Source: Amphiscolops sp. MND2022 (Eukaryota). Taken from it: a DNA stretch of 64,000 nt. Within the stretch, counting starts at the first letter, position 1; each line of letters starts with the position of its first letter. The notes beneath the pieces are model-generated. The model had not been told where the DNA came from, ran no database searches, and saw only the letters and a program-made list of their open reading frames with translations. The stretch is from the NCBI GenBank assembly GCA_964187785.1, contig OZ076409.1:66528001-66592000 (forward strand), in the 5' to 3' direction. The translations under genes were made by a program, and so were the position numbers. Shown here in pieces: positions 35,201 through 64,000 of the stretch.

Positions 35201-38200
35201 TCAATTTTTAGGAGTCGGAAAAAATTTTCGACTACTTATGCAATCGTGCTGTTTTTTTTTCTTTTTGTTTTTTTCTCCCGACCTTTTCATGAAAATTTCA
35301 AATTTCTCAAAAACTGTCCATACGATTTTCACAAAATTTTGCACAGTCATTCTACACCCAAAGGGGCCCCTGCGTGTGCAAAGGCATCAAAATCGTATGG
35401 CCTGGATGTGAGAAACATAGCCAAAATTAGCCCAAAAATGGCCAAAAAACAGCCATTTTTCGACTTTTTTCGATTTTCTCAAAAACTGTCCATACGATTC
35501 GAACGAAATTTTCTACAGTTAGTCTACACCATATTAGAGTCCTATATGTGCAATGGCATCAAAATCGTATGGCTGGGATGTGAGAAACATAGCCAAAATT
35601 AGCCCAAAAATGGCCAAAAAACAGCCATTTTTCGACTTTTTTCGATTTTCTCAAAAACTGTCCATACGATTCGAACGAAATTTTCTACAGTCATTCTACA
35701 CCATATTATGGTCCTTTATGTGCAATTTCATTAAATTCGTATGGCTGAGATGTGAGAAACACAGCCAACTTTAGCCCAAAAATGGCCAAAAAAACAGTCA
35801 TTTTTCGATTTTTTCGATTTTCTCACAAACTGTTCATACGATTCGAACGAACGCGAGTCAGAAGGAAAAAGACTTAAGCCGACTCCTTTACCGCATATGC
35901 GGCTCTGGTTTTTGATGTTTTGCAACACAATGGATGTCAAAAAATCGCAAAGGGTCCCCCCTTTTACATTTTTCGGCACTGTGACACTGTTCAAAAATCT
36001 CATTGAGAAAAATTATTTTGGGAAATTTTTTCATGTCTCCTAAGGGTCCGCCCTTCAATTTTTTTAAATTTTTTTGCAACCAGCTGGAGTTTCACAAAGC
36101 CCGAAGGGTCCCCCTTTTAAATTTTGAGCCTTAGATATGGCGCCGACTTTGGCCGTTCTCGGCTTGTTTCTTCTCATTTTGACCATGTTCTCAGCATTGT
36201 CTGTTATAATTGCAGACACTTCAACACCAAAATCTTGTTTCATTTTGTCCATTTCATCTTCAGCAATGTCCGCCAAAATTTCACTAGTATGAGGAACCGA
36301 ACTAGCATCAATTGTCGAAATCAGATAAACATTTTATCAGATAAAGCAATTATTGACTCGTTCGAAATGTTGCTCCAAACATCCATGCAGATAGAAACTC
36401 GTTGACCATTAACGTTTTCCGCACATTTTTGTCCGCAAGTCGCTTCCGTGTGGGTGGCTTATATCCTGGGTTTAGTGCCTGACAATTCTTTAAACTCTCT
36501 GGACTCTACTGCTCGGAACGTCAAACTATTGGCAAAAAATTCCCACTTTCAGATCAAATTTATCTTGATCAGCTTTGCTTGTGGAAACAGTGAAATTTGT
36601 GATTCCGGGATGTTTTGGAGCTCTAGGGCTTTGCTCCCAATCTGTGTCATGATTTCCAAAGTGCTGGCGCATTTGTTTGGCGTTTCCAACCATCACTTTA
36701 TTGCACGTAATACATTCTGCTCTGTTTTCCCCTAGGTCTTGTCTTCCGTTAAAAAATTCCCAAATGGGGGTCTCGGGGTCGACCGTCACTCATTTCTACC
36801 TGAAAAAAAAACTTTTGAATTACCTGAAAAATTTTTGAATTGCGTTAAAAATATGTTAAAAACTAATGTTAATTAACGTTAAAAACATATGTTAAAAACA
36901 TGCGTGTTTTTAGCGTGCCCACCCTGATTCAGCAATCTGTTGCTTCACGTTTCCTCATGTTTTGCTCTGCCAGGGGTACTCGAGCGTAAATTAAGTGTAT
37001 TTCTTGGTTCTCCAAGATGAACGGTACCTAATTTGTGGTATTTCCCAGAGTTTCAGGTTCATATTTTGAAGAAATAGTAACAACAAAAATTGAGATGCTA
37101 TAACCAAGAGATGTGACAGCGAGAGCGATAGCGAAGTAAAATTCTGAAATTTAAATTAATATCTTGAAAATCGGTTTTTTTAATTAGCGATAGCGTTAGC
37201 GAACTCATTTTGTTGTAGCGATAGCGATGAAATCAAGCCATTAGCGATGTTAGCGATGAAGTGGTTAGCGATCACACCTCTGGCTATAACTATACCTATC
37301 TATCATGTTTCACTCGAGGCTGATTTATTTGAGGTTTTCTTCTCAAAAATTCTAAAGGGGGCTCAAGCTGGAGTGTTATTTATTCAAATAACAAAACCTG
37401 TATCCTCAGATTTGGATATTTTCATTCAAACTTATCCTTTTTACATTTTTTTTAGATTTCAAAAATTGTAAATGCTTTGAATCTACTTCGAGTTTATCCC
37501 AAAAAATGTAAGAATTGTATACTATTTGGAAATTCGTTGCATTTGAAGAAATTTTGTTGCACTCCGAAGGGTCTGATTTTCACATGTAGATATATGCAGA
37601 CGAATTGTAATAATGCCAATCAAACCACAGCATAATCCGGGTTTACCGATGGCCTAGGTTTGGCCTTAATGATGTTATAGTCTAAGGACGTTACAACCGA
37701 AGAACTTTATGCACTCTTAATAGAGCGCGGTGGAACACATATTACATTTATAAGCGGCTTGACTTAATAACCGGTGACGTTATCACCGGCTTACATTGTA
37801 AAAAAACTGTAAATTTTGAAATTTTTCATCTTTGTGCAGAAACATGAAGATTTAATTTTATAATTTAGGATCTCTTGCTTATTGAGTGCTTGAACAAAAG
37901 TCATTTTGACTGGTTCTTCCAGTCTCGTATGCCCACAAATCACAAGGTCTCAAGAAACCAGACGAATGAATCATTCATCGGAGATCATCTCTCCCTTTAA
38001 TTTTTTAATCTGTTTCAGATGCATTTCATAAAAGCCAGAGGAGTTGATGTCATTCTCGCCATGTTGACAAAAAACAACTTTCTATCCAATGCTGACATTT
38101 ATACTAAACGGTTAGTTGGTTGACCTTCTCCTGGAGCAAAAGTGAAGTGGTTTTCAGAATCGTTTCTTAACTTCTTCCTGAGCTGATCTGATTTACTTCC

Positions 38201-41200
38201 TTTCATTCAACTTTCGCCACCTCTTTAAGTGAAACTGTCAAGACCAAACGCGTTGCGAGAGGCGAAATTTCGTAATGAAGATCATTGGTATGGATACATT
38301 TTTTGCTTGAACAAAGTACTTTTTGCAGAAGTGCATACACTGTGGTGGTGAAAATGTCGAAGCTTCTCTATTGTTCGATCGGATTCGCGATTCTGCTCCA
38401 CTTGAAAAACTCACCTGATGCCCTGACATCTACTGCTTCGGCAACCTTTTCTGATGCAGATGGTGCTAAATCCTCGGCTGCTGCTGCCGCCCAAATCAAG
38501 TTCGAAGGCCTTGAGGTCTGGGGTTATCAAAAGTTGATTCTTCAGAAATGTTCTATTTTCCCTGTCAATTATTGTATTTTTCAAAAACCAGGTCTTCCAT
38601 GTTACCAAAGTCAGCTTGACAGTATCACGAATTTGAAGAAATTAAAATTTTTTCATTGGAACATTGTTTTCGAGCTTTCAAAGCTTATGATACCGGAGTT
38701 GATGTTTGAAAATCAGGTGTCTGAAAAACATAATAAAACTTTGATTTTCATTTTGGAAGGGTTGCGAAATATCGTTAAAAAATTGTGATATAAATTTGAT
38801 AATGCCTGCTGCTGAAGGTGGGAATGCGTTCAATCCCCAACTGCTTGGACAACATAATTTTGCGACAAGTGGCGTCTGTGTTGGCCTGCCACATGTACTC
38901 AAAATACTCATTATCGGAGACTGAGCAAATTATCCCTGACGAAAGCACCATCAAGTCGCTCTTCAAGTTGGCATGCTCACCCACTGGTTCTGTTACTTTC
39001 GACAGCTCCCATCATTTCTCAAGTCTGGGCGGCAGTGTTTCTGGTTGCGTGCCCCACAGCGAGGAAAACTCAGGACTCCCGGCTAACAAAGTGAACGCGT
39101 TGAAGGAACCCAGTCATGAAGATATAATGCTCTCATCGGAAGCTCTGGAGGTGTTAACCATCTGCTTCACTTTGAACCCATCACAGTTGGAAACGTTTTT
39201 GCAGAAGGAGCAGCAGTGGAATTTTTTGGTGCAAGAGATTCTAATCAAGTGTCCCGATAGGAGTCTGAGAGTGACGTGTTTGGATCAGTTGCTGTTAATA
39301 GCCACGCGGGCCAATGTGGCATCGCTACCACGTGTGGTCAACTTTTTTGTCTCAATTCTGCTGAAACAGATGACTTATGCTGCTAATAATGCCGACAGAA
39401 GCGACTCGTTCTTCAGGTCAGTTAATTAAAGCCTAGTTTCGAAAACAGATGAAACCAGACTGTTCTTGACTGTTTTTAGGAGTCGGAAAAAATTTTCGAC
39501 TACTTATGCAATCGTGCTGTTTTTTTTTCTCCCGACCTTTTCATGAAAATTTCAAATTTCTCGAAAACTGTCCATACGATTTTCACGAAATTTTGCACAG
39601 TCATTCTACACCCAAAGGGGCCCCTGCGTGTGCAAAGGCATCAAAATCGTATGGCTGGGATGTGAGAAACATAGCCAAAATTAGCCCAAAAATGGCCAAA
39701 AAACAGCCATTTTTCGACTTTTTTCGATTTTCTCTAAAACTGTCCATACGATTCGAACGAAATTTTCTACAGTTATTCTACACCATCTTAGAGTCCTATA
39801 TGTGCAATGGCATCAAAATCGTATGGCTGGGATGTGAGAAACATAGCCAAAATTAGCCCAAAAATGGCCAAAAAACAGCCATTTTTCGACTTTTTTCGAT
39901 TTTCTCAAAAACTGTCCATACGATTCGAACGAAATTTTCTACAGATATTCTACACCATATTAGAGTCCTATATGTGCAATGGCATCAAAATCGTATGACT
40001 GGGATGTGAGAAACATAGCCAAAATTAGCCCAAAAATGGTCAAAAAAGGGCCATTTTTCGACTTCAGAAGGAAAAAGACCTAAGCCGACTCCTTTACCGC
40101 ACATGCGGCTCTGGTTTGATTCCATGTTTTCTCGTTTTTTTATCAGTCATATTCCGAGTTCTATGCAAAAACATCGTAAAATCTCAGGTATGAGCGCCCA
40201 CGGTGTATAAATCTCAATAAATTTTGCGCAGTAGAGAAAATGCTTCCAGTATATTACGGAGGCGTCATTACCGCGTAATTTTCTTGTTTGTTACAAAATT
40301 TTGGTTTGAGACAGCGCTGAAGAAAAAATAGGATGCGGGTTTACCAACCGTTTTCAATGTCTCATAGAATGTCGATGAGCTACAGTTATAATGTACCGAA
40401 GTTTGTCCAAAAATTTCCAAAGTCTAGTGCGCATGTTTTCCACAATAAGCCGTAGTGGTATGAAAAGTACCCTCGATTTTGTTGAAAGATAGATCAGGAA
40501 GTTTAGAAAAGTTGATGTGGATCTGGAACCGATGTTATGAACGTTGACTTGATTTAACTGCTTTAGATTGGTGTGCAAGTTGTTGGAATACGCGCGATTC
40601 CTCAATATATCGATTGAGAACTTGTCGCAATACCTTTCGCAAGAGATCACCTTCATAGACGAGACTAGAAACAACTGGCTGTCTGCAGTGGGGGTCGAGA
40701 AGGAAATGACGTTACCACATGATTTTTTTCTGTGTGGCAGACTTAATTTATGTCGCGAGCTGGTCTCCTTCACCAACGACGAGGTCGACAAGATCGTCCC
40801 GGGGTGCTCTTCGTTGATACAGGTTAATTTGTTCGTTCACTAATTAACCTTAAGCTGTTTATAAAAGTTAAATTGTAATGAAATTCTTACCTTTCAATTC
40901 AAAACATTGAATGAATTGAAATTTAGGTCGATAGAATTGAAATCAGGGGTGAGCAAATGAATATTATAATATATTGGACCATGTGTTCAATTTCACGACC
41001 CCCCCCGCCCAGGTACACCTTGTTGGGAGTTTCCACTCCCCACCCCCAACACGAAACCACATTTTGTTCTTGAATAAAAATATGAGAATATTATATGAAT
41101 GTATATACTTAGAGGATTGTCTCCACAACTGTTCGGACACTTCAGGCAAAAAAAATACCATAATTTTTTGGTATTATTGTCCAAAATAGCAGAAATTCAC

Positions 41201-44200
41201 GTTTGGAACAAGCTAAAATCGTATAAAAAAGGCCCCTCTTTCAGCGCAAATTTTGTCCGTGATTAAATCTAATGAGCAACTTTTTACTGACAATGTCAAT
41301 GTAATGGATAGGATTATCTCGACATCAATTATTTTATTGGACCAAAATTTCAACGCAAACGATGTCAACATAATGGTATTTGAACCTTGAACCTTGTCTT
41401 ATCCCCCCCTGTGGCCGCTTGGAGGGGAGGATTGAACATATGGTCCAATATATTGACTTTAAGAGACTCTATTGAAATCGTCATTTTATTTTTCACCATT
41501 TTGAATGAATAATTTTCATTCAAGATAAAGTGAAAGTAAATGAAAATGGGATCTTCTCTGTTAATTCCAAAAACTTATTTGAATGAATTTTTATACGCTT
41601 CTAAATATAGTAACTACAATCATACATTATTACTTGTCAACCTTAAATTGAATGTCAAAATATATTGGCCTGAAACACAAATACATTGGAACAAAATATA
41701 TACATGTAATTTAAGCTGAGAAAATATACTTTGCTTTTTTGAGAAAGTGTTTAAAGAAAGTGTACGATTGGGGCCTTTTCCGTTAATTTATTTAATTTTC
41801 ACCCTCTTGTAACACCATGTAAAATTGAATTTGTACAGAAAAGCGCCACCACGTCAGCAACAATTGCATTAGCGTGGCTTTCGCTCGCTCGCTTGCCTTG
41901 CATTTAAAATTGAATGCTAGCGCAGGCTTGCAAAATGACGATTACGTCACGCACTTTCTCACATTATTCCAAACACAGCTAGCTGCTGTTGAGCGAACGA
42001 TGTGTACTAGCTATTCAACTGTCTCTGTATAATTTATGCTTTTCGTTACAAACTGAATTTATCAAACTTGAAAATTAGGCGAAGTTATAAGTAAAGGTAC
42101 AAGTATATATTTCGAGTGATACCTAAAAATAATGGGCATTTTCACAAAATGGTGTGTTTGAAATTATATACATTGTAATGATTTGTCACCTCCGCCATGC
42201 AAGTAATAAAGAAAGACTTGATGTAATTAAGATCATACTTCTAGAGATCATTTCTAGAGTCTGCATCTTCGCCTCTTTTGGCAAAATTGATGACTTTCAT
42301 CAGCCCGATGATGACGGATGGATGTCTGGTCAGAGCATGAAGATGTCATGAGGGGAAACCTTCGATGACGTTGATGATTGCTTCGTGCTCCTTGGGGTAC
42401 AGAGACCAGGCAGCTATCTGAGGGCTATTTTAATTCCTTGAAAATATGTTCATACAAGTAAACAAATGAATTCTTTCACTCTGTTAATCAATTGATCTCT
42501 CCTATAAAAATCCCCAATCAAAAACGATGATATTTCATACATGTATTTAAAAGTGTTTCACTTTGTCTACCCCTTTTGTGCCGTATTTAAAGGATAACAC
42601 GGTCCCAAAATTGAATCACTATAGTAGTTATAACGATTAGATGTATGTAATTGCTTTCAGGAGTTATTCTTCGATTTCTTGTTCCCGGCCACCAAGGCGC
42701 TGCATCAGAACGAGAAAACCCTGTCTACATCAGCACAGTCTCAGCCTCTATTCGACAAGTGTAGAAATATCAAGCCGATATGCGACCAGTTGTTAACGCA
42801 AAACGCAGCGTTCCAGCTAATCATTGCCCTGTCAGAACGCAGTTTCGACAACTTCAGATTTCTCGTGCAGATTTTGATGGACTCCTTTTACAGCCGCAAT
42901 GTGACCACCATCACTGAATGGGAATTCCAGCCCCCGATCGGCTGCAAAGCCCCGGGTGGTTTCGTGGGTCTCAAAAATGCAGGTGCTACTTGTTACATGA
43001 ATTCAGTTATTCAACAGCTTTTCATGGTGCCCGAAATCCGGGAAGGCATTCTGTCAATTCCTGGAATCGCCGACGAGTACCGGGAAAATGACTCGGCCAT
43101 CGACTTCAGCTCCAGTTCAGTCGCGGGAAGCAGAGCAAATGACTCATCGAGCTCAGGATTCAGCTCAGCGGCGAGGTCTCTTGAACACGACGTGGAAAAC
43201 CTGTCCTTATCTGCAGTATCAATATCATCTCAGCTGGCTATATCCTCAAATTCTCAGGCAGGCATTAGGAAATATTGAACGAAAATCTAAATATTGAACG
43301 CCTAAATTTAGCGGTAGCAAATAAGGGACACGCAAATCAAATTTAGCGGCCCAAACTTAGCTTAGCACCATTCGTTTTTAAGATGGCTTTTCTCGACAAT
43401 TACAATAACAGTTGAACACTCAGCGATATATTAACAATCAGCATTTGATTCAATAGAGTTTTAATATTGGCTGTATGGCTGACCTTCCGTGGCGCTGTGC
43501 GCCCCCTTGTTCGGGCTTCATCAAAACCAGTCGCTTCGCTCCTGCATTTATGGCACCATAGCAAGTTCATTATACTGGTCTATTATCTCTGTGGTATTTT
43601 GTCCTTTGGTTTGGTATTTGTCCCCTGGTATTTTCTGGCATTCTGGCGTAAAAATGTGAAGTCAATATATAATGCCAAAACTAATGCCTGGCTGAGGTTA
43701 GGACGCGCGGGTCCAATATCACATAGAGGTGCTCAAGTATTTGCAAGTAATTTTCGGCTACCTGACTGCCAGCCAGCTGCAGTACTACTCGCCGGAGGGT
43801 TTCTGGAAGCACTTCCGGTTCGCAGGAGAACCTGTCAACCTCAGAGAACAACAGGACGCCCTCGAGTTCCTCAACAGCATCGTGGACAGGGATGTTAAAA
43901 TTGCCATGAATATGTATTATAGATTTACTATAGGACACATATACTTTTCTTGTATAAATCGTATGCTCACAGGAGGAAAACATTTTCCGAATTTTGTAGA
44001 TTTTTCACAGGGTTGGCTGATTATAATCATTTCAATCCACTATTTCAATCGTGATTCATTCAATTTGGAGGTGGATAAGTTATTTGATCATTTTCTTAAA
44101 TCAACATTTTCTTACTTCCGTTCCGAGCACTGGGCAATTGAAATGCGTATTCATCACTTGGTTCATTTGGAAAATTAATACCAATTGCTAGTTGAAAAAC

Positions 44201-47200
44201 TAAAACTTGTTTTTTGATCCAATTTTTGAAATAAATTTACTTTTCAGCGTTCCGATTTTTGGTGTCAGAACATTTCGACCTATGCAATTTCGACCTATGC
44301 AATTTCAGTTGCTGACAATTTTAACCTATTGCTTTTTCAACCTTCAACGAATCTTGACTCATTGATCCTAATTCGCCTGAATTATTTCACGACGACAATA
44401 GTTATAAATGAACCAAACTGGTCACATCATTTGTATTTATTCATGAAGAATCATTTCATGAAGAATCATATTCATGAAGAATCATTTGTATTTATTCATT
44501 GTATTTATTCATTTGTATTATTCACGACATCTCCTGTAATACTGTTTTTCGTCGGCGCCTTTTCCCTTAAGGAAAAAAGCCCGACTCTTACAGTGAGTAG
44601 TTTTTTTTCAGTTGACAATCTCACTCTTTTACAATCTTTTGTTCCTTTGTTTTCTGAGAAACTTAGTTTTTCACAACTAATTTTCTGAGAAGCAGGAGGT
44701 CGTGGGTTCGATTCTCTCACTAAACCACAAGTTTTTTAGGCTCTTTTCTGTTTTCCCCCCCACCACCAATTTTTTTTTTGGAAAATTAGTGAAAATCGTA
44801 TAACAAAAAGACTTGAATACAAACCAGAGAGCTTCAAATTTACATTCATTCTTAATGTGACAGTTTAGGATTCAGATACAAATTTTGTTCACACTTTTTC
44901 AATATGTAGTCACGCATTTTTGATGAAGAAGTCATCAGCTTCCTGTTTTGAGTCATCAATAAACGTTTAATACGAACACAATTATAGTCAAAAAGCGTGA
45001 ACAATGTTTTGTTAAAGCAAAACACTATTCCAATAGACGTTAACTTCCCATTATGAAAGAAGAATTTACTTTTAATTAGGCTAGTCTAAAGTTTTTAAGG
45101 AAATTTACTTCCAAAAATTTTGGTGGTGGGGGGGAAAACAGAAAAGAGCCGTTTTTTATGCTTCCAAAAGTAGAGGCGAGACCAAAAGGTCCCCCCTTTG
45201 GGTTTTTTTCGGCACTATGCGACTTTTTTCGAAAATTATCGAATTCTATCAAAGGGTACCCCCTTGCATTTTTTTGAAGTTTTCGGTTTCTAAAAACGTT
45301 TCATGAGCCTAAATGGCCTCTTTTCTAAGTTTTTCGGCATTGTGCGACTTTTTTTAAAAAAAATACTTTTTGAAAAAAAATTTTCCAAATATTTCCAATA
45401 GTTGTTCCTTGAATATTTTTGTGCCTTAGATATGGCGCCGACTTGGGACGTTCCCGTCTTGTTGATCGTTTGAATGATGATTTAATCACTTCTAAAGCGT
45501 GTGCAATTTTTTGCTGAAGCTTATCCCAACAATTTTTACCGGCCTATATTCATTATTCCGAAAATGGTTTTTTTTGCTTTTGTCGATAACATGCAATGAT
45601 TTTTTGAATATAACATCTCTGGACGTTGATAGTGTGGACGAGGCGACGAAACATCTGGGAATCTCACCCTCAGTGTTTTCTGCTATGATCGGGGGGTCCT
45701 TCGCAGATCAGAAGATATGCAAGGATTGCCCGCACAGGTACTCTAGGGAGGAGCCGTTCACGACTGTGAGTGTGGACATAAGGAACAACCAGACTCTGAA
45801 GGACTCGTTCGAGCAGTATGTGAAGGGCGACTTGTTGGAAGGAGACAACGCCTATTTGTGTGAAAAGTGTGGCAAGAAGGTACGTATCACATCTGTTGCA
45901 TAGTCTGAGTCAAAAGATCAGATGATTCAAAAAAGTCGGTTTAGGGATAGTCAAGTGACCTGCAATCAGTGAATTGTACACGATACACGACAGGATACAC
46001 CATTTTTTGCTTTGTGATACACGAACCTATACGATACACGATTTTTTGAAATATACACGAAAAATACACGATAATTAAATTGAGCGCGTGAATCTGGCAA
46101 TTGAACGTAGGAATTAGCCATTCCAGCAAGCTCAGGAGCAGCCAAAAGGCTATTTTCTCAATGTAACATACGATGCGCAAATAGAAGAAACCGTATGTTA
46201 CAAAAAACTTGGAAATTTTGGTTCAAATTGCTGTTTATAATGAGCAAATTGAAATTCAAACTTCAAAGTTTTTTTTTATTTTTCAGTAAAAAATACACGA
46301 ATATACACGATTATACACGAAAATACGCGATTTTTTAAAATACACGAATACACGTAACGGTTTTTGCAAATACACGATACACGAAAAACTTGATACACGA
46401 CAATTCACTGCCTGCAATGCTCCCCATTGTGCACTTTTACATATATTCTTCCGAATTTACTATCGTTTACTATGAAATATGTTTATTTGCTCTCGCTTTC
46501 AATTTTGATTGTCACATCAAGTGAAATTCATGTAAATTGAGGAAATTTTATCTTTTGACCCTGATATTTCGGAAACGGTTGATCATTTTCGAAATCAAAA
46601 TACATCCATGGCTTCAGTAGATTTGTGGGCGGTAATCGAAAATAAAACTTGCCAAAACGTCTGTGGACGGTCAAAAATTATAAAAACGATAAAAATCCCA
46701 ATTTTGCTAAAAATCAGCTTTTTGTAACTTTTCCAATTTTTGTCTCAGAAATTTTTCTTTAAAAAATACTAATATAAACTAGATGAAATTCTAAGAAATT
46801 TTTACTTTTGATGTTTTTCAAAAATTTTAATCAATTTCTGGAAAATCAAGCCTAAAATCGCCTAGGGGATGATTTCTTAATCACAGTACTGTATAACTTG
46901 CTTCAATGTTTTCGAGTTGTTGGAAAAATTAATAACTGTGTACATATACATGTATACTGTGCGTAGGGAGCGGCTCACTATGCAGACGGTTCACTAAGCC
47001 GACCAAATAAATTCATTCTCAGCGCGTGATTAAATTCAATCTGAACGCGCGATTAAATTCATTCCCAAATTTCATTGGACAAATACATATTCCAAATAAC
47101 AGTACATGTAAACAAGATTGCGTCAATCAACAACGTAGTCAGCTATGGTCACATACCTCTAGTGCCCTAAATGCAGGAGCGAAGCGAAGCGAAGCGGAGC

Positions 47201-50200: not shown

Positions 50201-53200
50201 TCTTCGTTCACGTCCTTTGACCAGAAGAGGAATTCAAGTTAGTCAGAAGCGCTTTTCAGTCGGCGACTTTTTGCGACTCTTAGTGGCAATTTTTAAAGTA
50301 GAATGAAAATTTCCTCTCTGAAAAGTCCACTTTTTTACAATCTTTTAGACTGAGATCTAAGGAGGAGTATTAACAGACGCCAAAGGGATCTTTGTTCATT
50401 GAAGCCACCAGATGTGATTTTATGACCTTTTTTTGACAGCATAAATGTAATAATTTCGATGTGCAGCTCAATTTTTGGATTGCGAAAACGTTATTTTCCA
50501 GGAGTTGGAATCTCGGTCTCCTGTCAGTTTCAGTTTCTATGTAGAAATGTGCTTCTTGAAGGTTTTCTCGGAATACAATGTAAACACAGTAAAATCCGTT
50601 GAATTCGTATCTAGGGAAATTTATGGCTATCCTACCCAATACTGAGTTCTGGTTATTGATATTGATTTATTCAATCTGTGAAACTACGAATTACCTGGAT
50701 TCCTTCCATTGAATCTCTCTGGTTGTCCTTGGCCCATTGTTTCATTTTTGTTTTAATTTAGGTCGACGACAGAAGCGTTGGTGGAACGCGTACTTGCTTG
50801 TCTACGAGCGGCGGCAAGAGCTCAGTGACCAGACTAGTCCTGTGCAGCTGTGCAATATGCAAGCATCCGCTTTGGCCACTGCTCACAGGCCACACTCACA
50901 GGATCACCACCTGAAGCTGGTCGATGTCACCTCGGATGAGTCATCGTTGACCTCTTTCGACAGCGAAGAAACCACTTCAGCAAAAGGCTGCTCAGACAAT
51001 AATAAAACCTGTGTCCCCAATAGTTCAACTTCGTCCAAGTCTTCTCTTCATCTTTCTATAACCAGCTCTTCTCAGAATAACAACAACAACAGTAGTAATA
51101 ATTGCCTCTTGAAGATGCCACCGTCCATTTCGAAAGCTGTGGAACAGCAGACTGTCAATTTTGCCCACAATAAAGTTCAGTTCATGCCAGAGTATCTGAA
51201 CTTTGTTAAAAATCTGGTCTCAAGTTGCCAAGGTACGGGTGTGCGTGCGATAGTTTTCTGTATCAGTTGATTTTTTATATCACTGATGTCGAAATTTTGT
51301 TTTTGAAGTGTTTTGCTGTTGCTGAAGTGTATCCATGTTTCTTCTACATGATAATGAACATAATCAAGTTTGTCGTATAAGCTCAGATAGTTCTAACCGA
51401 ACTTGTTCAAAATTCAAAGCTGAAAATAAATTCAATTAATCAGGCGACAGATGTGCAGAAAAACTCATGTTCTAGAATCAGGCCGGTTTTTTGTGTTTTG
51501 TCTAAAAAACACCATTAAAAAATCCAGCGCACAGAAATGAATTTGTTTTTAGAAATGTAGAAATTCAATTTGGAGTATAGTATATTTATCATAATCAGCG
51601 ACACCGCACGCCCGTATGCGAATAAATCAAGGCTTCATGATGGACATTCGAGAGGTCAACAATCAAGGTCAAACGGTGGCCGACCAGTTTGGGATGCTGT
51701 CAATGCAACTTCTGTGCAATGTCGTCTTCAACACTGTGCTGCACACGAAGAAGGTTCTCCGCGGGCCGGCCCATGATTGGACAGATTTGATGATCACGCT
51801 ACTGAAGCATGTGGCATGCACAAGAACGTGGCTGGCGGAGAACTGGATTTTTAAGTACAAGAAATTAATATCCGAGTACATTTTGGACTGTCCATCTGCC
51901 GAAGTTCGTCAAGCTATTGTCAAGTTACTTGTGTTTCTCTGCCACTTTTCCAACTTTGATGGGCCCTATCTTACAATACAGCAACGTTAGTGTTTAAAAA
52001 CCCTAACTTTTCTTGCAAGGTTCAGAAAGTGCAAGATCTTAAAAATATGATTTGGGCAGATTTAAGAAAATTGTGAAAATTTGTGCCGAAAAGAGGGGAC
52101 TCTTCTATAATTAACGCATTAAAAAATTTTTTTTTTTAAATTTTTTTTAGCTGAATCTTTGAATTCCTCCCACATATTCAGCCGAAGTAAGTCTCTTAAA
52201 GTCTGTGAAAATTGGACTGTAATGTAATTCTGTGGTGCGGAGAAAAAACTATTGACTGTAGCAGTCGGACGCTTTTTCTTAAGAAAACACTGACTAAAAT
52301 TTTAACTGAAACTTTTAAATATCTTTGATGCATTAGAGTTCTTGCGACTCTGCAAAGTGTCGCAACGCTGCCAAAAAGACTGCATTTTATTGAAGTGCCC
52401 ATTCTTCTGCCCATTTAACTGGTTTTCCTCTTGGTTCTTGTTGGTAATCTCCGATTTGAATGGCCATATTAGAGCAGTAGAATTTTAAAAAGTCCAAAAA
52501 AACTCATTTAAAATGATCGCTCAATTATAGAAAGGAAATTGGCTCGCAAAAGAAAACAGCATGAAGTGTTTTAATTTAGCCATGTAAATCTAATCATGCT
52601 GTTATCACTTCTTTAAGTTCAACTATAGTAAGAAATGACCCAGAGCCAAGTTTCTGACTTCGATATCTCGGAATATCTAAGTTGTCAATTTCTGTAAAAA
52701 TCAGAGGAAACTTTTTTGACCTTGTACCGGAAGTTAATTCGCTGAAAAATTTGAACACTCAGTGGGAGACAGAAATGTTTTCTTTGTGTGCAGGTGAGAG
52801 TGGCAAGATTTTGGCGACACATGCGAGTCTGAAGCTGAGTGACTACATAGTGAGTGAGATGGCGTCTCTGATGCGCAAAGACGTGAAGGAGTCCTCGAAG
52901 CACCTCAACCAGTACTTCCACTTCTTCCTCCACTACTGCTCTTTTGGGCCCGACCAAAGGTGCTACCTTACTCTGTCGTTATCACTGAACTGCTGGTTTT
53001 TACACACAAAAATCACATATTGCTATTCATTAAGTTGAAAAATTCTCAGCATTAGATAGGTTTTCCCTGTCTCGCAAGACGTGGATATGACGAGAAAATA
53101 TGCTATATCCGAAATTTATTTATATCGTATATCTGAAAATCTTATTATTATGAGTTTATTCGTAAAATACAAAACTCCGATGGCGGTTCAATTGAAACTC

Positions 53201-56200: not shown

Positions 56201-59200
56201 TCAACATCCATTCTGTTGCAAATTTCCAGAAAAACTGAAAGGGAGGACCCTTTGGGATTTTTCAACATCCATTCTGTTGCAAAACTCCAAAAAAAATTGA
56301 AGGGGGGCCTTTCATGGTGAAAAAAGTTTTTTTTGAAAAAAGTCGCACAGTGCCGAAAAAATGGACCCTTTGGTCTCGTCCGGTATTGTATGTTACGCGG
56401 GAAACATTTTTGGTTCAGTTCCTTGGGCCAACAGGTACATTTTGGCGTCTTCTGGAACTTTTGGTAGAACTATTTTGGTCAGTTCAGGTGGTCTTAAAAA
56501 AACACTGACGAAAAGCCATGACTATAGTCGACTCTTTTCTAAAGAAAAGCGCCGACTAAAAACTGAAGTCGTTTTCTGCAGTAGTATGCGAGTGTATACC
56601 GGAACCGGTAACTGCCACTTAGGAAAGTGTGGCTCAATACTTACAACGACATTTCAGTTCGCAAATTTACAACTGCTGATTCACGTGTTGAACTATTTTC
56701 AAAAAGTAGATTTGTTGAATTTTAAATTGGGTCTTTCGTGCAAGACTTCATTCTATAAATAAGAAGTAAGATTACAGGCTTCAGTCAAATAGTTATAATA
56801 ATATAGTAATCAAGTAATTAAGCACGACTGACAGCACAAAAACACTTTACGAAATAAGAACAACTATGAAATAGGTTTAATGAATTAGCTTGTTTTGCAA
56901 GAAAAGGTCGAGGGATTTAGTGAAAGTGGTTTGAGGGTGGTCAAAATTCAGCACATGGTTTCTAATCGGCTCGTTTGCACTTTTAATAAACGATCGTGGA
57001 ACTATTCGTACTTGTGAACTTCTTGGCTATTGGCCTACAAAACCAAGAATTATAACTGCGAGTATGTATGGGCTTTGATTCCTTCTCTGTGGTGAATTTG
57101 TTGATTTTCTTATCTGTAGGCTTGGGTAAAACAATAGAAAGCCAAGAAAATTCCTGAAATTTTATCAATATTTAAATATTCATCACTGATCTCGACTACA
57201 TTTTTCATTGTAAATGCATGGGTCTTTCTTGCAAAAAGAAATCCACAATTTTGCCTTGGCTTTGATTGGCCCAAAACTAATTTCAAGACATTACCAATTG
57301 TATCTCCTGAAAAAGAAACGAAAGCATCGTGTTTGTTCATCAAAATGGAAGTTTTATTATTTAGTTGACCATAAAAAAGTATCTATTATGCATTCTTCGT
57401 TTCAAAAACCCGCCTCTGATGAAATGAAGTTCTGTGAATTCATTCTATTTAGAGGTTAAGTTTTGAATGTGAGTTTTGTTGCAGTACCTCTCTTGGGAGA
57501 ATGCGTCGTTCTCTGCGGCTGTGCTGACGGACATTCTGTGGCAAATCACCTTTGCATACGCAGCTGACCTCAAACCGTATTTGGATCTTCTTCTGGAAGT
57601 GCTAAAGATCCCTGACTCATGGCAGACGCATAGAATCATAAAGGCTTTAAAGGGCACGCCGAAAAAACAAGGTAAAAGTATGGCTCCGACGTTTCTTGAA
57701 TTGGCAAAATGCATTTTTGGGTTGAGTCAAAATATTTTGAACCCGTTGATATTATTAAGATTGACCTGTGGTTCCAAATTAGGTGCCAAATGTTACAAAA
57801 TTGTCCAAAATGATGTCCCATATGCCAATTCAGTAGTAAATGCAATCAATGAAAAATGAAATCAGGAAGTTTCTTCATTATTTGCAAACTTAGATATCAA
57901 GTGCCCAACAAAACTTTGGAATGTTTGTTTATTTGATTTTCAAAACTTGGATGATAGCAGAAACCAGAGCTAGTTTTGTTTTGGTCCAATTCTTTTTTTA
58001 CAAATAAAGGTTCAATTTATTTCTTACACTATTGTACTAATTGAAGTAGTTAAATCTGTTGAATGAACAAAATAGATTATCAGCCCTTAAAATTAATAGA
58101 ACATCATACTACTGTTTGGTTGAGTAATTTCCTAAAAGCATCCTTCTGCGCCAACAAACCGTCCATTCCTCAATTCCTTCGGCTAGCTGCCAGTTCTTTT
58201 GGCAGGCAATCAAAGAAAACAGTTACCTTGGTAGCGTGCAAAAGCGCATATATACCTTGCAGTGGAAAACAATTGTGTTCTAGACAGCAAAGATGGTTTG
58301 TTCGAAACAATTGAGAAAAGCAAGACGCATTTTGCAAGGCGAGCTTACCTGGCGATCAAGATGCTGACGAAGCTCTTCAGTCAGAGCCCACCGGCCCTCT
58401 CCATCCTGCGCCGGGATCCAGAGATCAAAAACCAGTGGCTGGTGGTCGTCGATTGGCTCAAACTCGAACTAAATCGCAACCAGGGATGAGCAATTGAATT
58501 TATCTCGACAGCGTTTCACGTAATCTAATGTCCCAATTTGCCAGGAGTGCCTTTATAACGAGCGGGGTCTGTCAGTTTTTGAAGGGAGACCTTTAGGCCA
58601 GATTTGATCGGTAAGGGAGTGGTCGAAGATTTGCAACCAAGTTGTACGGAACCGTTAAGGCAACCTGGGACACCACAGTAGGTGTACGGCAGCTTTATTG
58701 TTTATAGAGGTAAAAAAATGTAGGATCACATTGAATCTCGATGTTGATTGGAAAACCGATTGTAATACAGTCAGTTTTCAGTTATCCGGACCTTGTTCGA
58801 ATAGTTTTCACTTCTTCGATAGCGAGAGAAGCAAGAAATTATCGTAGTTTTTTTTGAAAAGCTGACCAAGATGCCATTGAGTGGCTGAAACTGTGCTTTT
58901 ACTGCCGATAAAATAAGTTTACTACCGATACAGGTTTTCTTTGCTTCATGGGCAAGGTTGGCCTGTTTTAAAACAATGTTTTAAAACACGCCAATAAAAA
59001 ACGTTTTAAAACATCAATAAAAAAACGTTTTGAAACATTTTATTAAACATTTTGAGATTTGATTAAGATAATTTATTGTTTTTTTATTTTCGATTGTTTT
59101 CACCCCCATATTTTTTGAATGTGATATATCGTTTATGTTCAAAAATTCGTTTATGTTCAATTCGTTCAAAGCTGAGATGCCAACTGGATAACGAAAAGAC

Positions 59201-59871
59201 AGCCAAACTCTGCTTTTTGTATCGCCAATTAAACAAGAAATAATTTTCTTTAATTCACATTTAATGTAATTAAAGATTAAGAAACAATAATATCCGTTTT
59301 TCTCAGTTTGAAGTGGAAAATTTTTAAAAAACAATAAAAAACAAAAAACATGTTTAATTGTTTAAAAAACTGTTTGTTTTATTTGATAAAAAACAAACAA
59401 ATGACCAACCCTGTTCACGGGCCGTTTTAAAATAGATTAATTAAAAGTAGCTGCGTTTTCATTGACGCACAACTGCGATGACCTTCGCCGAGTTTTCTTC
59501 GCTTTTCCTGTACCTTAAATTTTTGACAAAAATTCAATTGCCCATCCTTTGGTGATCAGTTTGCGATATCAAGCGGAGGTGGCAACCAGTACCAGAACTA
59601 CAACTACTCGTGGAACAATTCGGGGGCTGCCAATGGTGGCATAGGGGGAGTGTCAAATGAAACGGCCAATGGACACGCACTAGAGAGATCACCCAGTGCC
59701 AGACTCACCCTGCAGAAGGCGTCTGAGTTCATCCCCATTGCCAAGCCAGCGTCGCCCTCACCCGGAATTGCGGAGAAATCGTCGGCAACCACAGCTGCGT
59801 CTGTATCACCGGTGGGCTTAAACATTTCAGGGCTTTATTTAAGATATTGTTTTTATCCATGCGTTGTTTAA
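1771..59871 (+). CDS. USP9X: Ubiquitin carboxyl-terminal hydrolase USP9X/FAF-like, multi-exon gene (27 coding exons reconstructed; last exon may splice on at 59811)
   Basis: Exons are collinear with USP9X-family motifs: [48 protein letters not shown], Cys box [49 protein letters not shown], His box [51 protein letters not shown]. Phases close at all 26 junctions. Confidence 0.95.
2743..2855 (+). CDS. USP9X: USP9X exon 2
   Basis: [50 protein letters not shown]; not in the ORF track. Confidence 0.9.
6317..7184 (+). mobile_element. HINE/DINE-1-like (Helentron-associated) family A copy with a second family A copy nested at about 6372-6850
   Basis: 5' T-run+AGTCGGCGC with a nearby partial inverted copy (GCCCGACT); 3' GCGCCGACTT + hairpin (AGACG-TTCC-CGTCT or GCCG-TTCC-CGGC) + TGTT; sits in T-runs with no TSD. 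Confidence 0.75.
7502..7793 (+). mobile_element. HINE-like family C with an antisense tRNA-like cassette; near-identical partial copy at about 8970-9211 and inverted 3' end at 9647-9688
   Basis: Subterminal IRs CACATGACGAAG/CTTCGTCATGTG, 3' hairpin GCGAAGC-ACC-GCTTCGC; minus-strand TGGCACAGTGG...GGTTCGAATC. Confidence 0.6.
9212..9432 (+). mobile_element. 5'-truncated copy of the same LINE 3' end, with (ATA)-rich tail
   Basis: 9212-9380 is the reverse complement of 9716-9884; it follows a (TA)n run and ends TTTATAATAATAAAATAAT. Confidence 0.7.
9716..13600 (-). mobile_element. Decayed CR1/L2-group LINE (ORF1 remnant, APE endonuclease, RT), many frameshifts
   Basis: EN motifs RADR..KHGG, GDFNLP, CLDLIF, SNH; RT motifs [40 protein letters not shown]; internal ~108-bp tandem duplication at about 11130-11345; 5' boundary approximate. 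Confidence 0.9.
13794..14393 (-). CDS. Intact 199-aa ORF, SGNH/GDSL-hydrolase-like, probably retroelement-borne
   Basis: [10 protein letters not shown] (block I-like), GGLS (II), [10 protein letters not shown] (III), ILHP (V), Lys-rich tail; lies upstream of and co-oriented with the LINE. Confidence 0.45.
   Translation of the reverse strand: MVFIIGASSLRNTIVALPYHERRQFNGRTFSDGGLSFNSQNPDKKKVLHNLLNRGSLSRKKNIVIWHDLINNTVTPYRRKNSPSPVIPPLPIPNLLSILKSLKDRIAAVVYIQRFEDPQILQNLRSTKIITIDAFKQLISHRNRKNKILICNLRILHPKIINEARLLIALWSSRQNLKQFGPEKFKNKKKKKPSQKKEL
15481..15645 (+). CDS. USP9X: USP9X exon 3
   Basis: [24 protein letters not shown]...[11 protein letters not shown]...YQ|GTAATC. Confidence 0.9.
15890..17316 (+). 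mobile_element. HINE family A-type copy containing a tRNA-like cassette (16011-16075) and a nested piggyBac-like MITE (about 16320-16870)
   Basis: 3' end GGCGCCGACTTGGGACGTTCCCGTCTTGTT; MITE ends TAACCATAAGTTGACCA / TGGCCAAGTTAAGGTTAA; 5' boundary approximate. Confidence 0.6.
17644..17703 (+). CDS. USP9X: USP9X exon 4 (60 nt)
   Basis: [31 protein letters not shown]; fills the gap before GWLVDL. Confidence 0.8.
18220..18790 (+). mobile_element. piggyBac-like MITE, same family as 16320-16870 and 29780-30224
   Basis: Starts TTAA-CCCTAAGTGGACCA; internal sequence is homologous to the other two copies; right end unclear. Confidence 0.6.
19125..19240 (+). CDS. USP9X: USP9X exon 5
   Basis: [28 protein letters not shown]...LLAALL|GTGAGT. 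Confidence 0.9.
19965..20340 (+). CDS. USP9X: USP9X exon 6
   Basis: [15 protein letters not shown]...[18 protein letters not shown]...DKLA|GTAAGA. Confidence 0.9.
20681..21254 (-). mobile_element. HINE family A copy
   Basis: AACAAGCCGGGACCGGCCAAGTCGGCGCC...GCGCCGACTAAAAA. Confidence 0.75.
21469..22505 (-). mobile_element. HINE family A copy with an oppositely oriented family A fragment inside (about 22030-22481)
   Basis: AACAAG..GAGTCGGCGCC start, GCGTCGACTAAAAA end; internal AGCGCCGACTTTAAACGTTCCCGTCTTGTT. Confidence 0.6.
26330..27052 (+). mobile_element. 3' fragment of a non-LTR retrotransposon ORF2 (decayed)
   Basis: [40 protein letters not shown] and C-terminal [14 protein letters not shown] knuckle; stop codon and frameshift present. 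Confidence 0.75.
27737..28203 (+). mobile_element. HINE family A copy
   Basis: TAGTCGGCGCC...AGCGCCGACTTGAGACGTTCCCGTCTTGTT. Confidence 0.75.
28305..28476. mobile_element. Tc1/mariner(pogo)-type MITE
   Basis: TA-CAGTGGATCCCGGATATA ... TATATCCAGGAGCCACTG-TA. Confidence 0.75.
28564..29354 (+). CDS. USP9X: USP9X exon 7
   Basis: [28 protein letters not shown]...VKEGS|GTTAGA. Confidence 0.92.
29780..30224. mobile_element. piggyBac-like MITE nested in a degenerate HINE family A copy (about 29445-30283)
   Basis: Perfect 15-bp TIR CCCTAAATGGACCAG / CTGGTCCATTTAGGG, flanked by TTAG and TTAA. Confidence 0.8.
30660..31895 (+). CDS. USP9X: USP9X exon 8 (includes Ubl-like segment; ends at GG donor)
   Basis: [20 protein letters not shown]...LWNTI; ends ATAAG|GGATGAG. 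Confidence 0.88.
32010..32734 (+). mobile_element. HINE family A copy (degenerate)
   Basis: Family internal GGGTCCCC/CGGCACT-type motifs; 3' GACTTGGGCCGTTCCCCTTGCTTGTT. Confidence 0.65.
33174..33393 (+). CDS. USP9X: USP9X exon 9
   Basis: CCAG|(R)[24 protein letters not shown]...SRLFQ|GTGAGT. Confidence 0.88.
33788..34367. mobile_element. piggyBac-like MITE nested in the hAT element
   Basis: TTCA-CCCCAATTGACCT ... AGGTTCATTGGGG-TTAA. Confidence 0.65.
34914..36168 (+). mobile_element. HINE family A copy interrupting the hAT transposase
   Basis: TTTTTAGTCGGCGC...GGCGCCGACTTTGGCCGTTCTCGGCTTGTT; transposase ORF pieces abut both ends. Confidence 0.8.
35205..35910 (+). mobile_element. HINE family B with internal 172-bp tandem repeats (about 3 units)
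   Basis: subTIR AGGAGTCGG/CCGACTCCT, 3' hairpin CCGCATATGCGG; GGCATCAAAATCGTATGG recurs at 35383 and 35555. Confidence 0.8.
37105..37282. mobile_element. hAT-type MITE with AGCGAT subterminal repeats
   Basis: 8-bp TSD GCTATAAC; imperfect TIR CAAGAGATGTGA / TCACACCTCTG. Confidence 0.75.
38019..38110 (+). CDS. USP9X: USP9X exon 10
   Basis: [42 protein letters not shown]. Confidence 0.88.
38329..38515 (+). CDS. USP9X: USP9X exon 11
   Basis: [24 protein letters not shown]...FEGLE|GTCTGG. Confidence 0.8.
38818..39416 (+). CDS. USP9X: USP9X exon 12
   Basis: [14 protein letters not shown]...[14 protein letters not shown]...DSFF|GTCAGT. Confidence 0.85.
39473..40117 (+). mobile_element. HINE family B, second copy with 172-bp tandem repeats
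   Basis: Near-identical to 35205-35910; unit marker at 39637, 39809, 39981. Confidence 0.8.
40567..40822 (+). CDS. USP9X: USP9X exon 13
   Basis: [15 protein letters not shown]...SSLIQ|GTTAAT. Confidence 0.85.
40971..41451. mobile_element. MITE with ~21-bp TIR
   Basis: ATATTGGACCATGTGTTCAAT / ATTGAACATATGGTCCAATAT. Confidence 0.7.
42661..43257 (+). CDS. USP9X: USP9X exon 14, catalytic Cys box (3' end ambiguous: 43257 with GC donor or 43215 with GT donor)
   Basis: [16 protein letters not shown]...[23 protein letters not shown]. Confidence 0.88.
43702..43889 (+). CDS. USP9X: USP9X exon 15 (ends at GG donor)
   Basis: [24 protein letters not shown]...[14 protein letters not shown]; ends GACAG|GGATGTT. 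Confidence 0.88.
44545..45463 (+). mobile_element. HINE family A copy with a nested MITE
   Basis: GTCGGCGCC...GGCGCCGACTTGGGACGTTCCCGTCTTGTT; B-box-like GGTTCGATTC near 44705. Confidence 0.75.
44739..45150. mobile_element. Merlin-like (GG...CC) MITE
   Basis: ~31-bp TIR GGCTCTTTTCTGTTTTCCCCCCCACCACCAA; 8-bp TSD GTTTTTTA; superfamily inferred from termini only. Confidence 0.75.
45633..45879 (+). CDS. USP9X: USP9X exon 16
   Basis: GATAG|(S)VDEATKHLG...[17 protein letters not shown]...[15 protein letters not shown]. Confidence 0.9.
45967..46410. mobile_element. hAT-type MITE with ATACACG subterminal repeats
   Basis: TIR CAGTGAATTGT / ACAATTCACTG; 8-bp TSD CCTGCAAT. Confidence 0.85.
46966..47361. 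mobile_element. Mutator-like MITE
   Basis: 9-bp TSD CTGTGCGTA; G.../...C termini; IR GACGGTTCACTAAGCCGACCAAA / TTTGGTCGGCTTAGTGAACCGTC. Confidence 0.8.
47582..47759 (+). CDS. USP9X: USP9X exon 17
   Basis: [35 protein letters not shown]...AKIE|GTTTTA. Confidence 0.92.
48353..48576 (+). CDS. USP9X: USP9X exon 18
   Basis: CTTAG|GEIIRDD...[20 protein letters not shown]. Confidence 0.88.
48966..49065. repeat. ~100-bp imperfect palindrome
   Basis: CTATTGCAAAAG...TAGTGAAATGAAT / ATTCATTTCACTA...CTTTTACAATAG. Confidence 0.8.
49128..49674 (-). mobile_element. HINE family A copy
   Basis: AACAAGCAGGGAACGGCCAAAATCGGCGCT...GCGCCGACTAAAA. Confidence 0.75.
50015..50237 (+). CDS. USP9X: USP9X exon 19, catalytic His/Asp box
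   Basis: [19 protein letters not shown]...[12 protein letters not shown]...NQWFGG...|GTTAGT; frame not in the ORF track. Confidence 0.92.
50762..51232 (+). CDS. USP9X: USP9X exon 20
   Basis: TTTAG|(S)[16 protein letters not shown]...[10 protein letters not shown]...SSCQ|GTACGG. Confidence 0.9.
51599..51985 (+). CDS. USP9X: USP9X exon 21
   Basis: ATCAG|...[14 protein letters not shown]...[12 protein letters not shown]...IQQ|GTTAGT. Confidence 0.88.
52794..52959 (+). CDS. USP9X: USP9X exon 22
   Basis: TGCAG|...LKLSDYIV...[10 protein letters not shown]...PDQ|GTGCTA. Confidence 0.88.
53782..53957. mobile_element. Tc1/mariner-type MITE
   Basis: TA-CCGTATTTCTTCG ... CGAAGAAATACGG-TA. Confidence 0.8.
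54015..54189 (+). CDS. USP9X: USP9X exon 23
   Basis: [15 protein letters not shown]...[22 protein letters not shown]...GKE|GTTTGT. Confidence 0.88.
54438..54633. repeat. 196-bp loopless palindrome
   Basis: Centred on GATGT|ACATC (54531-40); the arms differ at about 2 positions. Confidence 0.95.
54938..55096 (+). CDS. USP9X: USP9X exon 24
   Basis: [17 protein letters not shown]...[28 protein letters not shown]; frame not in the ORF track. Confidence 0.88.
55250..55712 (+). mobile_element. HINE family A copy
   Basis: TTTTTAGTCGGCGC...GGCGCCGACTTGGGCCGTTCCCGGCTTGTT. Confidence 0.8.
55917..56561 (-). mobile_element. HINE family A copy, inverted relative to 55250-55712
   Basis: AACAAGCCGGGAACGGCCCAAGTCGGCGCC...GCGCCGACTAAAA. 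Confidence 0.8.
57485..57671 (+). CDS. USP9X: USP9X exon 25
   Basis: [15 protein letters not shown]...LKPYLDLLL...[14 protein letters not shown]...|GTAAAA. Confidence 0.92.
58284..58483 (+). CDS. USP9X: USP9X exon 26 (ends at GG donor)
   Basis: [20 protein letters not shown]...[11 protein letters not shown]; ends CCAG|GGATGAG, and read-through hits TGA after one codon. Confidence 0.88.
58953..59413. mobile_element. hAT-type MITE with AAAAC-rich subterminal repeats
   Basis: CAAGGTTGG / CCAACCCTG termini; 8-bp TSD TTCATGGG/TTCACGGG. Confidence 0.75.
59560..59811 (+). CDS. USP9X: USP9X exon 27 (ends at CCG|GTGGGC donor, or runs to stop at 59871)
   Basis: [25 protein letters not shown]...[25 protein letters not shown]. 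Confidence 0.85.
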
Positions 59872-59985
59872 ATGTCCTAAAGCTCTAACTTCGTATATTT
59901 AAAATCAATTGCTCTATACTGGAATCAGTGTTTTCACTCACTAATGTAAATTCGCTTTTCTAAAATTGATTTTCAGATGTAAGTT

Positions 59986-62900: not shown

Positions 62901-63970
62901 AACACTACCTGAAAACATTTCAACAGAGCGGGGTTTCCAAAAACGACGTGTACATGGACTACATAAACAAAAAATTAGTGGCTGCCCAGGATCAACAATC
63001 GCAAAAGGTTTGAAAGACGTGGTTCGCTTCCTGGAGTGGAAAAGAACCGAACGCCCGGGGTGTTTTACTGAAATCGAACACAGTCTAATGGAGGAGCAAA
63101 AACGTAACCTGAGTCGATTGGTCTACCTTAGCTCGAACTGTTACTCATACGACAGAAGTCTTATAGCAAAGTACTCTGAAATTCTGTGGCAGGAGTCGAT
63201 AAACAATACGTTGTCGCTAGAGGGAAAAGCGAACATCCCAAAGGTGTCGTGCGAGCCCTTACCGATTCCACCGGACTTCTCACGACTAGATGAAGTGCTG
63301 TATATGAGTTTATTTTATGAAAACAATACAATGTACCATTTTCTTTGGCAACGAAGTCTGGTAGAATCGCCCCTATGCCGATGCATGGAAGATATTCAGA
63401 CTGTAGAACACATTTTGTGTGATTGTCCAATGGTAGAAGAAGATGTGAAGCGTCAACTAGATGAATTCAACTGGAAGAACCTGGGTTACGGGCGTGCAGA
63501 CATTACAGTAGACCTTTTGAACTGTTCGAGGAATCCAGAATTAGCAACAATTTGCAAGAAGATTATAAGAAACCCGAAGCTCAAATTATGGCAGCAGAAA
63601 TAAGAGACAAACAGAAGTAGCTGGTTATCATAAAGACGAATGGAATTTGCAAAAAGAACAAGCGCTCCGAAGAAAGCGCATCAGAGAAATTATAGAGAGG
63701 TCAAAACAAAGCCAGAGTACCTCTATGGACACTAAAATGCCCACAGTAGGCAGTAAAAGAAATCATCATCATCATTATATCCGAACTTCTGAAGCGTTTT
63801 CCCAGCACGGAAGGCTTCCTTTGGGTGAAACTTTTTTGTGTGTTCTAACCCCGTTGTATTTTTTCGGCACTGTGAGATTAAGAATTTTAAAAAAATCCTC
63901 GACGTTTTGAAGTACTTTTGCTCCTTTCGAGCCTTGAGCGGGCGACGACTTTGCCGTTCCCTGCTTGTTT
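59986..63970 (+). mobile_element. HINE family A copy interrupted by another family A copy (about 60039-60538) and by a LINE; a further copy begins near 63970
   Basis: Family termini at 59986, 60039, 60538 and 63970. Confidence 0.7.
61062..63775 (+). mobile_element. 5'-truncated LINE (I/Jockey-group-like RT), nearly intact ORF2 with one frameshift near 63010
   Basis: KEGKTSY..AGAYRPIS, DFEKVYD, GLPQGSVISP, KFADNG, C-terminal CRC..TVEHILCDC; (CAT)n tail at 63761-75; 12-bp TSD TATATCCGAACT (61050-61, 63776-87). Confidence 0.9.
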
Positions 63971-64000
63971 TTAGTCGGCGCTTCATGAAGTGAAACGCGA

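Follow-up and report, generated by a model that had tools for sequence, protein, structure and literature searches.

A GG–AG intron in an acoel USP9X gene, probably a recent gain from a transposon with Ac-like ends

Intron 26 of an acoel USP9X gene begins with GG and is joined end to end by a long helix. We conclude that it is probably a recently gained spliceosomal intron derived from a transposon, and that the helix is a relic of that transposon, most likely its terminal inverted repeats.

The USP9X gene and the junction of intron 26

The window, the whole 64-kb stretch of DNA analysed here, holds most of one large animal gene, which runs on the + strand from 1768 to at least 59811. The encoded protein has its matches among FAF-X/USP9X-type ubiquitin hydrolases, and the nearest named relatives, P0031 from the acoel Convolutriloba macropyga and P0034 from the acoel Symsagittifera roscoffensis, are each about 62% identical to it. 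A further match, P0029 (2830 amino acids), is encoded by a single open reading frame (ORF) on a Logan contig of 8805 nt; it agrees with the spliced window protein at 2573 of 2729 positions (94%). Judging from its length, we take P0029 to be the spliced transcript of a very close relative, and it served as the reference for mapping the coding introns. There are 26 of these: 22 GT–AG, one GC–AG (intron 14) and three GG–AG (introns 8, 15 and 26). With all 26 removed, the joined frame runs for 2763 codons without a stop, which bears out the ordinal given to intron 26, for coding introns, in a preliminary description of this DNA.

P0029 continues for about 90 residues beyond exon 27, and no exon matching them was found in window 59812-64000. 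A further intron probably starts at 59812, and the gene probably extends past 64000. An exact-match look-up of six window ORFs in the sequence collection returned none of them. The features at the junction are as follows.

58284..58483, + strand: USP9X coding exon 26, ending in LELNRNQ; the final CAG (58481-58483) is taken as the putative start of the element
58484..59559, + strand: intron 26, 1076 nt, phase 0, GG–AG; missing in two outgroups
59560..59811, + strand: USP9X coding exon 27, FAISS...SNETANG...LERS, 86% identical to P0029

The window reads AAC CAG|GG at 58483/58484 and AG|TTT at 59559/59560. P0029 reads ELNRNQ|FAISS across the join of exons 26 and 27, which selects the GG–AG junction. 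Reading on into the intron would give GGA TGA, with the stop at 58487-58489, as the preliminary description stated; translation ending at 58489 is ruled out by exon 27, which is open and closely matches P0029. We also scored every in-frame, stop-free pair of a GT, GC, GG or GA donor in 58400-58559 with an AG acceptor in 59480-59659. The best pair was GG 58484 with AG 59559 (683), ahead of the best GC (619) and the best GT (600). The GT alternative, at 58448, removes 12 codons, including the conserved DWLKLELNR. Upstream GT and GC donors are therefore ruled out by their lower scores and the conserved residues they lose, and the earlier judgement that the GG donor is nearly forced holds. The CAG repeat flanking the intron (3 nt at its left copy, and exact) permits three other registers with an identical mRNA; we chose the GG–AG register because no other ends in AG. 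Splicing of intron 26 at GG–AG is shown at the level of relatives' proteins only. An Rfam search found no family in the intron.

Other features lie elsewhere in the window. Intron 13 contains a full-length U3 snoRNA gene (RF00012, 102 bits; window 42229-42426, +) on the same strand as USP9X. Remnants of LINE-type reverse transcriptases lie at 10584-11657 (-), with an RVT_1 match at 10587-11111 (E 9e-21), and at about 61000-63600 (+). Several introns, the gained introns 8 and 15 among them, are filled by an abundant dispersed repeat in which the motif GGGTCCCC recurs; examples are at 6600, 16100, 27900, 32200, 45200, 49300, 56100 and 60200-60850.

Presence and absence of introns in relatives

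Intron absence was scored at the protein level, from gene-caller ORFs on relatives' genomic contigs. On a 208,122-base contig, P0061 starts within intron-like sequence where intron 25 lies, then crosses NRNQFAISS uninterrupted. P0198, a single genomic ORF on a C. macropyga-type contig, likewise reads through the site of intron 26. Because the intron is missing from these two genomic ORFs, we infer that it was gained recently, a point missed in the preliminary description. A search of metagenome contigs for related loci, based on P0061, gave 127 pattern matches, none of which was confirmed.

The relative represented by the 208,122-base contig is identical to the window protein at 1545 of 1678 positions (92%) over seven fragments. 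Its ORFs cross introns 7, 8, 11, 12, 14, 15 and 26 and stop at introns 9, 13, 21, 24 and 25, so that it lacks 7 of the 12 scorable window introns, with all four non-GT introns among the seven. Symsagittifera- and Convolutriloba-type ORFs additionally cross introns 5, 16, 18 and 20, and stop at 10, 17 and 19. Seven introns (1-4, 6, 22 and 23) were unscorable and are left out of the counts of gained and shared introns. End-to-end helices occur in 7 of 11 introns missing from some relative and in none of eight shared introns (Fisher P 0.013), and the exon ends in AG at 10 of the 11 gained introns compared with three of the eight shared ones (P 0.04). Three ORFs of the 92%-identical relative (P0169, P0030 and P0192) are interrupted at three positions that carry no intron in the window; these breaks suggest independent intron gain in the sister lineage, or may be assembly errors.

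In other animals an intron lies two codons upstream: of 19 proteins examined (among 107 matches), eight depart from the alignment at ELE(R/K)|V or ELDR|V. This position is what would favor an old intron that slid six bases from its ancestral animal site, decayed from GT to GG and was lost twice in the outgroups. Such a history requires the slide and both losses, and a new gain is simpler because the two acoel outgroups have neither intron. An assembly error at +2 would also produce a spurious GG, but the G at +2 is mirrored by a C in the 3′ arm of the helix. Both proposals must further contend with three introns that share the same start, and with an ORF running into intron 8 as RDE that is present on two contigs. 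We therefore regard a slid intron or an assembly error as highly improbable.

Paired ends and Ac-like termini

The helix of intron 26 joins 58482-58501 to 59549-59530 over 20 positions, 18 of them Watson–Crick pairs, with one G–U pair and one A–C mismatch. At -30.2 kcal/mol (z -5.7), it is more stable than any of 500 shuffles and lies below all 650 cross-intron pairings, whose minimum is -26.3. It is also part of the fold of the whole intron, with pair probabilities of 0.85-1.0 for +1 to +18, the mismatch excepted. The 20-bp helix of the preliminary description is thus real. Its billing as the longest is right for ungapped runs among the seven helix introns, although introns 14 (-30.5) and 20 (-29.9) are equally stable. 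The proposed ACCA/TGGT extension also exists, ACCA at 58479-82 pairing with TGGT at 59550-53, but it takes a 1-nt bulge and leaves 6 nt, not 5, before the junction.

We called an end-to-end helix at P <0.03 in introns 8, 11, 14, 15, 16, 20 and 26, comprising three GG, one GC and three GT donors (11, 16 and 20); the floor of P 0.002 was reached by introns 8, 14 and 26 only.

31896..33173, + strand: intron 8, GG–AG, AG|GGATG start; 3′ arm ending at 33156 and matching the Ac/Ds terminus at 11/11 positions; missing in three relatives
38516-38817, + strand: intron 11, GT; weaker helix than intron 20
43258..43701, + strand: intron 14, GC–AG, strong end-to-end helix with a different terminus; missing in three relatives
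43890..45632, + strand: intron 15, GG–AG; putative element at 43887-45621, followed by exactly 8+3 nt; duplication 5/8; missing in three relatives
45880-47581, + strand: intron 16, GT; weaker helix than intron 20
51233..51631, + strand: intron 20, GT–AG with a strong end-to-end helix; a control that has the helix without an odd donor

The gained introns 11 and 14 have a short motif in common near their 3′ ends and possibly represent a second family of intron-forming elements.

The preliminary description did not remark that the helix of intron 26 begins at a hAT-like terminus, YAGGGATG, whose first three bases are the last three of the exon. All three GG introns start AG|GGATG, with a mirror copy near the 3′ end, and all three combine exon AG, +1 G, +3 A and an AG acceptor with a lineage-specific position. 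The exact 8-mer YAGGGATG occurs three times in the window, each time at a GG-intron end. The terminus of maize Ac/Ds is C/TAGGGATGAAA, with an 8-bp duplication, in the accessible text of PMC3260210. Counted from the third-last base of the exon, each left end (introns 26, 15 and 8) matches this terminus at 9 of 11 positions; the right ends match at 11/11 in intron 8, 8/11 in intron 15 and 6/11, shifted by one base, in intron 26.

These termini suggest a route by which the intron may have formed. A non-autonomous hAT-type element with YAGGGATG ends would have landed in the exon, immediately upstream of a host CAG codon. The first three bases of the element would have replaced that codon and the bases after them would have become the donor (CAG|GGATG). 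The host CAG, pushed back behind the 8-bp target duplication, would have become the acceptor, so that splicing restores the original protein. The end-to-end helix would be the pair of terminal inverted repeats, with the GG donor inside it and the acceptor made of host sequence. Introns 8 and 15 may have arisen in the same way. The features expected at intron 26 are these.

58473..58480, + strand: expected first copy of the 8-bp target duplication, exonic
58481..58501, + strand: left arm, putative left terminal inverted repeat; covers the donor, 9/11 to the Ac/Ds terminus
59530..59551, - strand: right arm, putative right terminal inverted repeat; pairs with intron base +1 at -13
59549..59556, + strand: expected second duplication copy, 3/8 identical (P 0.37)
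59557..59559, + strand: acceptor CAG, presumed original host Gln codon

In general terms, an element inserted before a host NAG codon would give the exon a YAG and leave an intron that ends in the duplication plus NAG, with the partner of +1 at -15. Intron 15 has it at -15 exactly, while the right end of intron 26 is 2 nt short of the model and that of intron 8 (partner at -21) is 6 nt long. The 8-bp duplication is likewise best in intron 15 (5/8, P 0.04) and poor in introns 26 (3/8) and 8 (2/8), and in a group test gained introns did not exceed shared ones (P 0.19).

Beyond their termini, the interiors of introns 8, 15 and 26 have no end-to-end homology within the 64 kb. When nine of the 26 introns were compared with the window by blastn, nested repeats appeared and no second full copy of intron 26. 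The blastn comparison of introns with the window missed a 20-base end at 40944, which other searches found.

40944..40963, + strand: free copy of the intron 26 left end inside intron 13, 17/20 identical (shuffle mean 0.00)

A right end for this copy was sought and not found. Starting 24 bases inside it is a MITE-like 24-bp inverted repeat (96%; window 40968-41454). The 19-base left end also matched three metagenome loci, at which there was no partner end with a duplication and no likeness to intron 26 past 19-22 bases; by our estimate, a few such matches are to be expected by chance in a collection of this size, and we did not use them.

Gain by another mechanism or family would account for the poor duplications. 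In this case the intron would come from a non-hAT element or from fold-back copying in the course of break repair, and the Ac-like terminus would have converged on the one form of GG donor that can be used. The four other helix introns (11, 14, 16 and 20) have termini unrelated to the GG-intron ends, and in introns 14 and 26 the arms pair with host exon bases beyond -3. Moreover, all five GG donors of the copepod Eurytemora affinis read YAG|GGA (File S1, PMC5714493). Since YAG|GGA may be needed by any GG donor, part of the left-end match is expected anyway, and six of the matching bases may reflect this general requirement. The continuation to GGATG, however, is seen in none of the five copepod donors and in all three here, and the 3′ mirror copies, including the 11/11 match at intron 8, are free of donor constraint. 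Along with the free copy of the end in intron 13, these observations make a non-hAT or repair origin, in our view, decidedly unlikely.

Elements resembling hAT transposons occur in the window.

33489..36926, - strand: hAT-like element in intron 9, decayed; its ends start with CAG, its 8-bp duplication is perfect, and it holds DUF659 and BED-finger pieces that fall below the Pfam cut-off
58953..59413, strand not assigned: nested hAT-type MITE in intron 26, 461 nt; ends 9/11 complementary, flanks 58945-58952 and 59414-59421 7/8 identical

We take DUF659 and BED fingers to be marks of hAT transposases. In the intron 9 element, the BED finger scores E 0.003 and the DUF659 pieces E 0.05, both short of the cut-off; its ends match each other at 8 of 14 positions and are similar, not identical, to those of intron 26. 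The 3.4-kb element, of autonomous type, is interrupted by an insertion of about 1.1 kb, and its coding pieces are broken by frameshifts and stops. Another MITE-like element, at window 45967-46410, has 11/12 ends and a perfect 8-bp flank.

The nested MITE of intron 26 has CAGGGTTGG-type ends. The preliminary description had recognized it, and had remarked that the helix persisted despite the insertion, which implies selection. We accept the MITE and reject the argument: the insertion lies some 470 nt into the intron, where it could not disturb the ends, so that its survival says nothing about selection on them. Nor are the helix arms (18/20) detectably better kept than the ends of the younger MITE (9/11). 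The GG donor, helix and MITE of that description therefore stand, and its implied selected splicing device is not supported on the grounds given.

A splicing role for the helix can still be argued from other evidence. Whatever its origin, the helix might now be needed, either joining a weak GG or GC donor to the acceptor or replacing U1 pairing, and be kept by selection. Helices are found in 4/4 non-GT introns compared with 3/22 GT introns (P 0.002), and the arms of intron 26 have stayed at 18/20 while the expected duplication decayed to 3/8. The helix can reach into the exon, to -6 in intron 14; six of the seven helix introns are T-poor at the 3′ end (T fraction 0.24-0.35); and splicing in Euglena requires a paired end signature, according to the accessible text of PMC12501133. 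Among gained introns only, however, the donor contrast falls to 4/4 against 3/7 (P 0.19). The register of the helix to the acceptor ranges from -8 to -21 among the seven introns, unlike a fixed ruler, and end pairing is unreported for the copepod GG introns in PMC5714493, which ran no test for pairing. The helix of intron 26 also occupies the donor from -2 to +18 and the acceptor side from -30 to -11. U1/U6 and U2AF/U2 must bind the donor and acceptor-side stretches in single-stranded form. The spliceosome would therefore have to open the helix or act before the far arm is made. On balance we consider structure-assisted splicing unlikely. The same doubt applies to its strongest form, in which the terminal repeats have been domesticated as a cis splicing signal and GG and GC donors work only while the 3′ arm pairs across them. 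If that were true, an animal would possess structure-dependent introns of a Euglena-like class, and tolerance of this kind would allow Ac-type transposons to found introns genome-wide.

Because the register varies and the Euglena signature is absent, we read the helix as a transposon relic, and splicing would not need it. Exon AG, +1G, +3A and +5G retain most of the usual U1 pairing, as in the pattern described for copepod GA/GG donors, and the acceptor is an ordinary CAG. We infer that the ordinary U2 spliceosome removes intron 26, in a lineage that would tolerate a G–G donor given exon AG, +3A and +5G. The transposon origin draws on the empty sites, the enrichment of helices in gained introns, the terminus match, the geometry of intron 15, the free left end and the hAT-like elements; counting against it are the 3/8 duplication of intron 26, its right end 2 nt short of the model and the group duplication test. 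This evidence covers one gene, with empty sites read as protein and three introns alike at their termini only.

Significance and comparison with known systems

New here would be a GG donor formed inside an Ac-type terminus and an element replacing a host codon, in an acoel. Our literature search found no report of non-canonical or gained introns in acoels, including in the accessible text of PMC9911081 and PMC10565955; subscription papers and introner datasets were outside its scope. Animal introns very rarely have a GG donor, and the study of the copepod in which such donors are common did not settle how they arose (PMC5714493). The acoel introns offer a specific way: exon AG and G-G-A-T-G are both contained in the Ac-type terminus YAGGGATG, and insertion directly before a host NAG codon would yield an exact intron. 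The absence of seven of 12 scorable introns from the 92%-identical relative also points to a burst of intron gain in an acoel lineage. Genes of this kind would be broken up by gene finders that accept only GT or GC donors. With filled and empty sites in close relatives, both intron birth and any role of end pairing in splicing can be tested directly.

In E. affinis, GG donors have an obligate exon AG and mostly +3A, and occur in recently gained introns; they make up about 12% of introns, compared with 3/26 here (PMC5714493). Donors there are mostly GA, their origin is unexplained in that study, and 3′ ends are not in its File S1.

Maize Ac/Ds has the same terminus, C/TAGGGATGAAA, and the same duplication length, and Ds supplies splice donors near its ends; Ds1 is cited as acting as an intron (PMC3260210, PMC5395267). 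The maize cases are plant mutant alleles and exonisation rather than fixed, exact introns, and the accessible text of these papers has no GG donor inside the terminal repeat.

Complementary ends that join the junctions, together with short direct repeats, are likewise described for euglenid nonconventional introns and Amoebophrya introners (PMC12501133, PMC7789003). In the accessible text of these sources, Amoebophrya has widely variable borders and no detected U1, and Euglena requires a fixed N3CDG..CH'GN5-6|R signature. A Euglena-type register does not fit intron 26: CAG falls at +4 to +6 only with a start at 58478, where its partner is TTG and not CTG, and the in-frame end, 59556, precedes C and would delete an Asn kept by P0029, P0061 and P0198.

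Introners are lineage-specific gains from non-autonomous transposons with terminal repeats (Gozashti 2022 PMC9860276; Gozashti 2025 PMC12130899; review PMC11282704). As with introners, one splice site here would be carried by the element and the other co-opted from the insertion site, leaving mRNA length unchanged. Introner 5′ sites are GT, GC, GA (and AT) in the accessible text of PMC9860276 and PMC12130899, not GG as here. The word 'acoel' occurs 0 times in the main texts of these two papers, whose supplementary datasets may list such genomes. Unlike introners, the copies here are old, with likeness in the 64 kb limited to the termini in three introns and one free left end.

Fritillaria borealis is also an animal whose non-canonical splice sites are transposon terminal repeats at species-specific positions, and its non-canonical introns are removed by the U2 spliceosome (PMC11282704; bioRxiv 2025.08.15.670264). 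In the accessible text of these sources AG–AC and AG–AT ends dominate and fewer than 10% of introns are GT–AG, whereas in our gene 22/26 are GT–AG and intron 26 combines a GG donor with an AG acceptor. As far as the accessible descriptions allow comparison, intron 26 would work like introners and the Fritillaria introns, with which it shares recent gain and ends that resemble terminal repeats.
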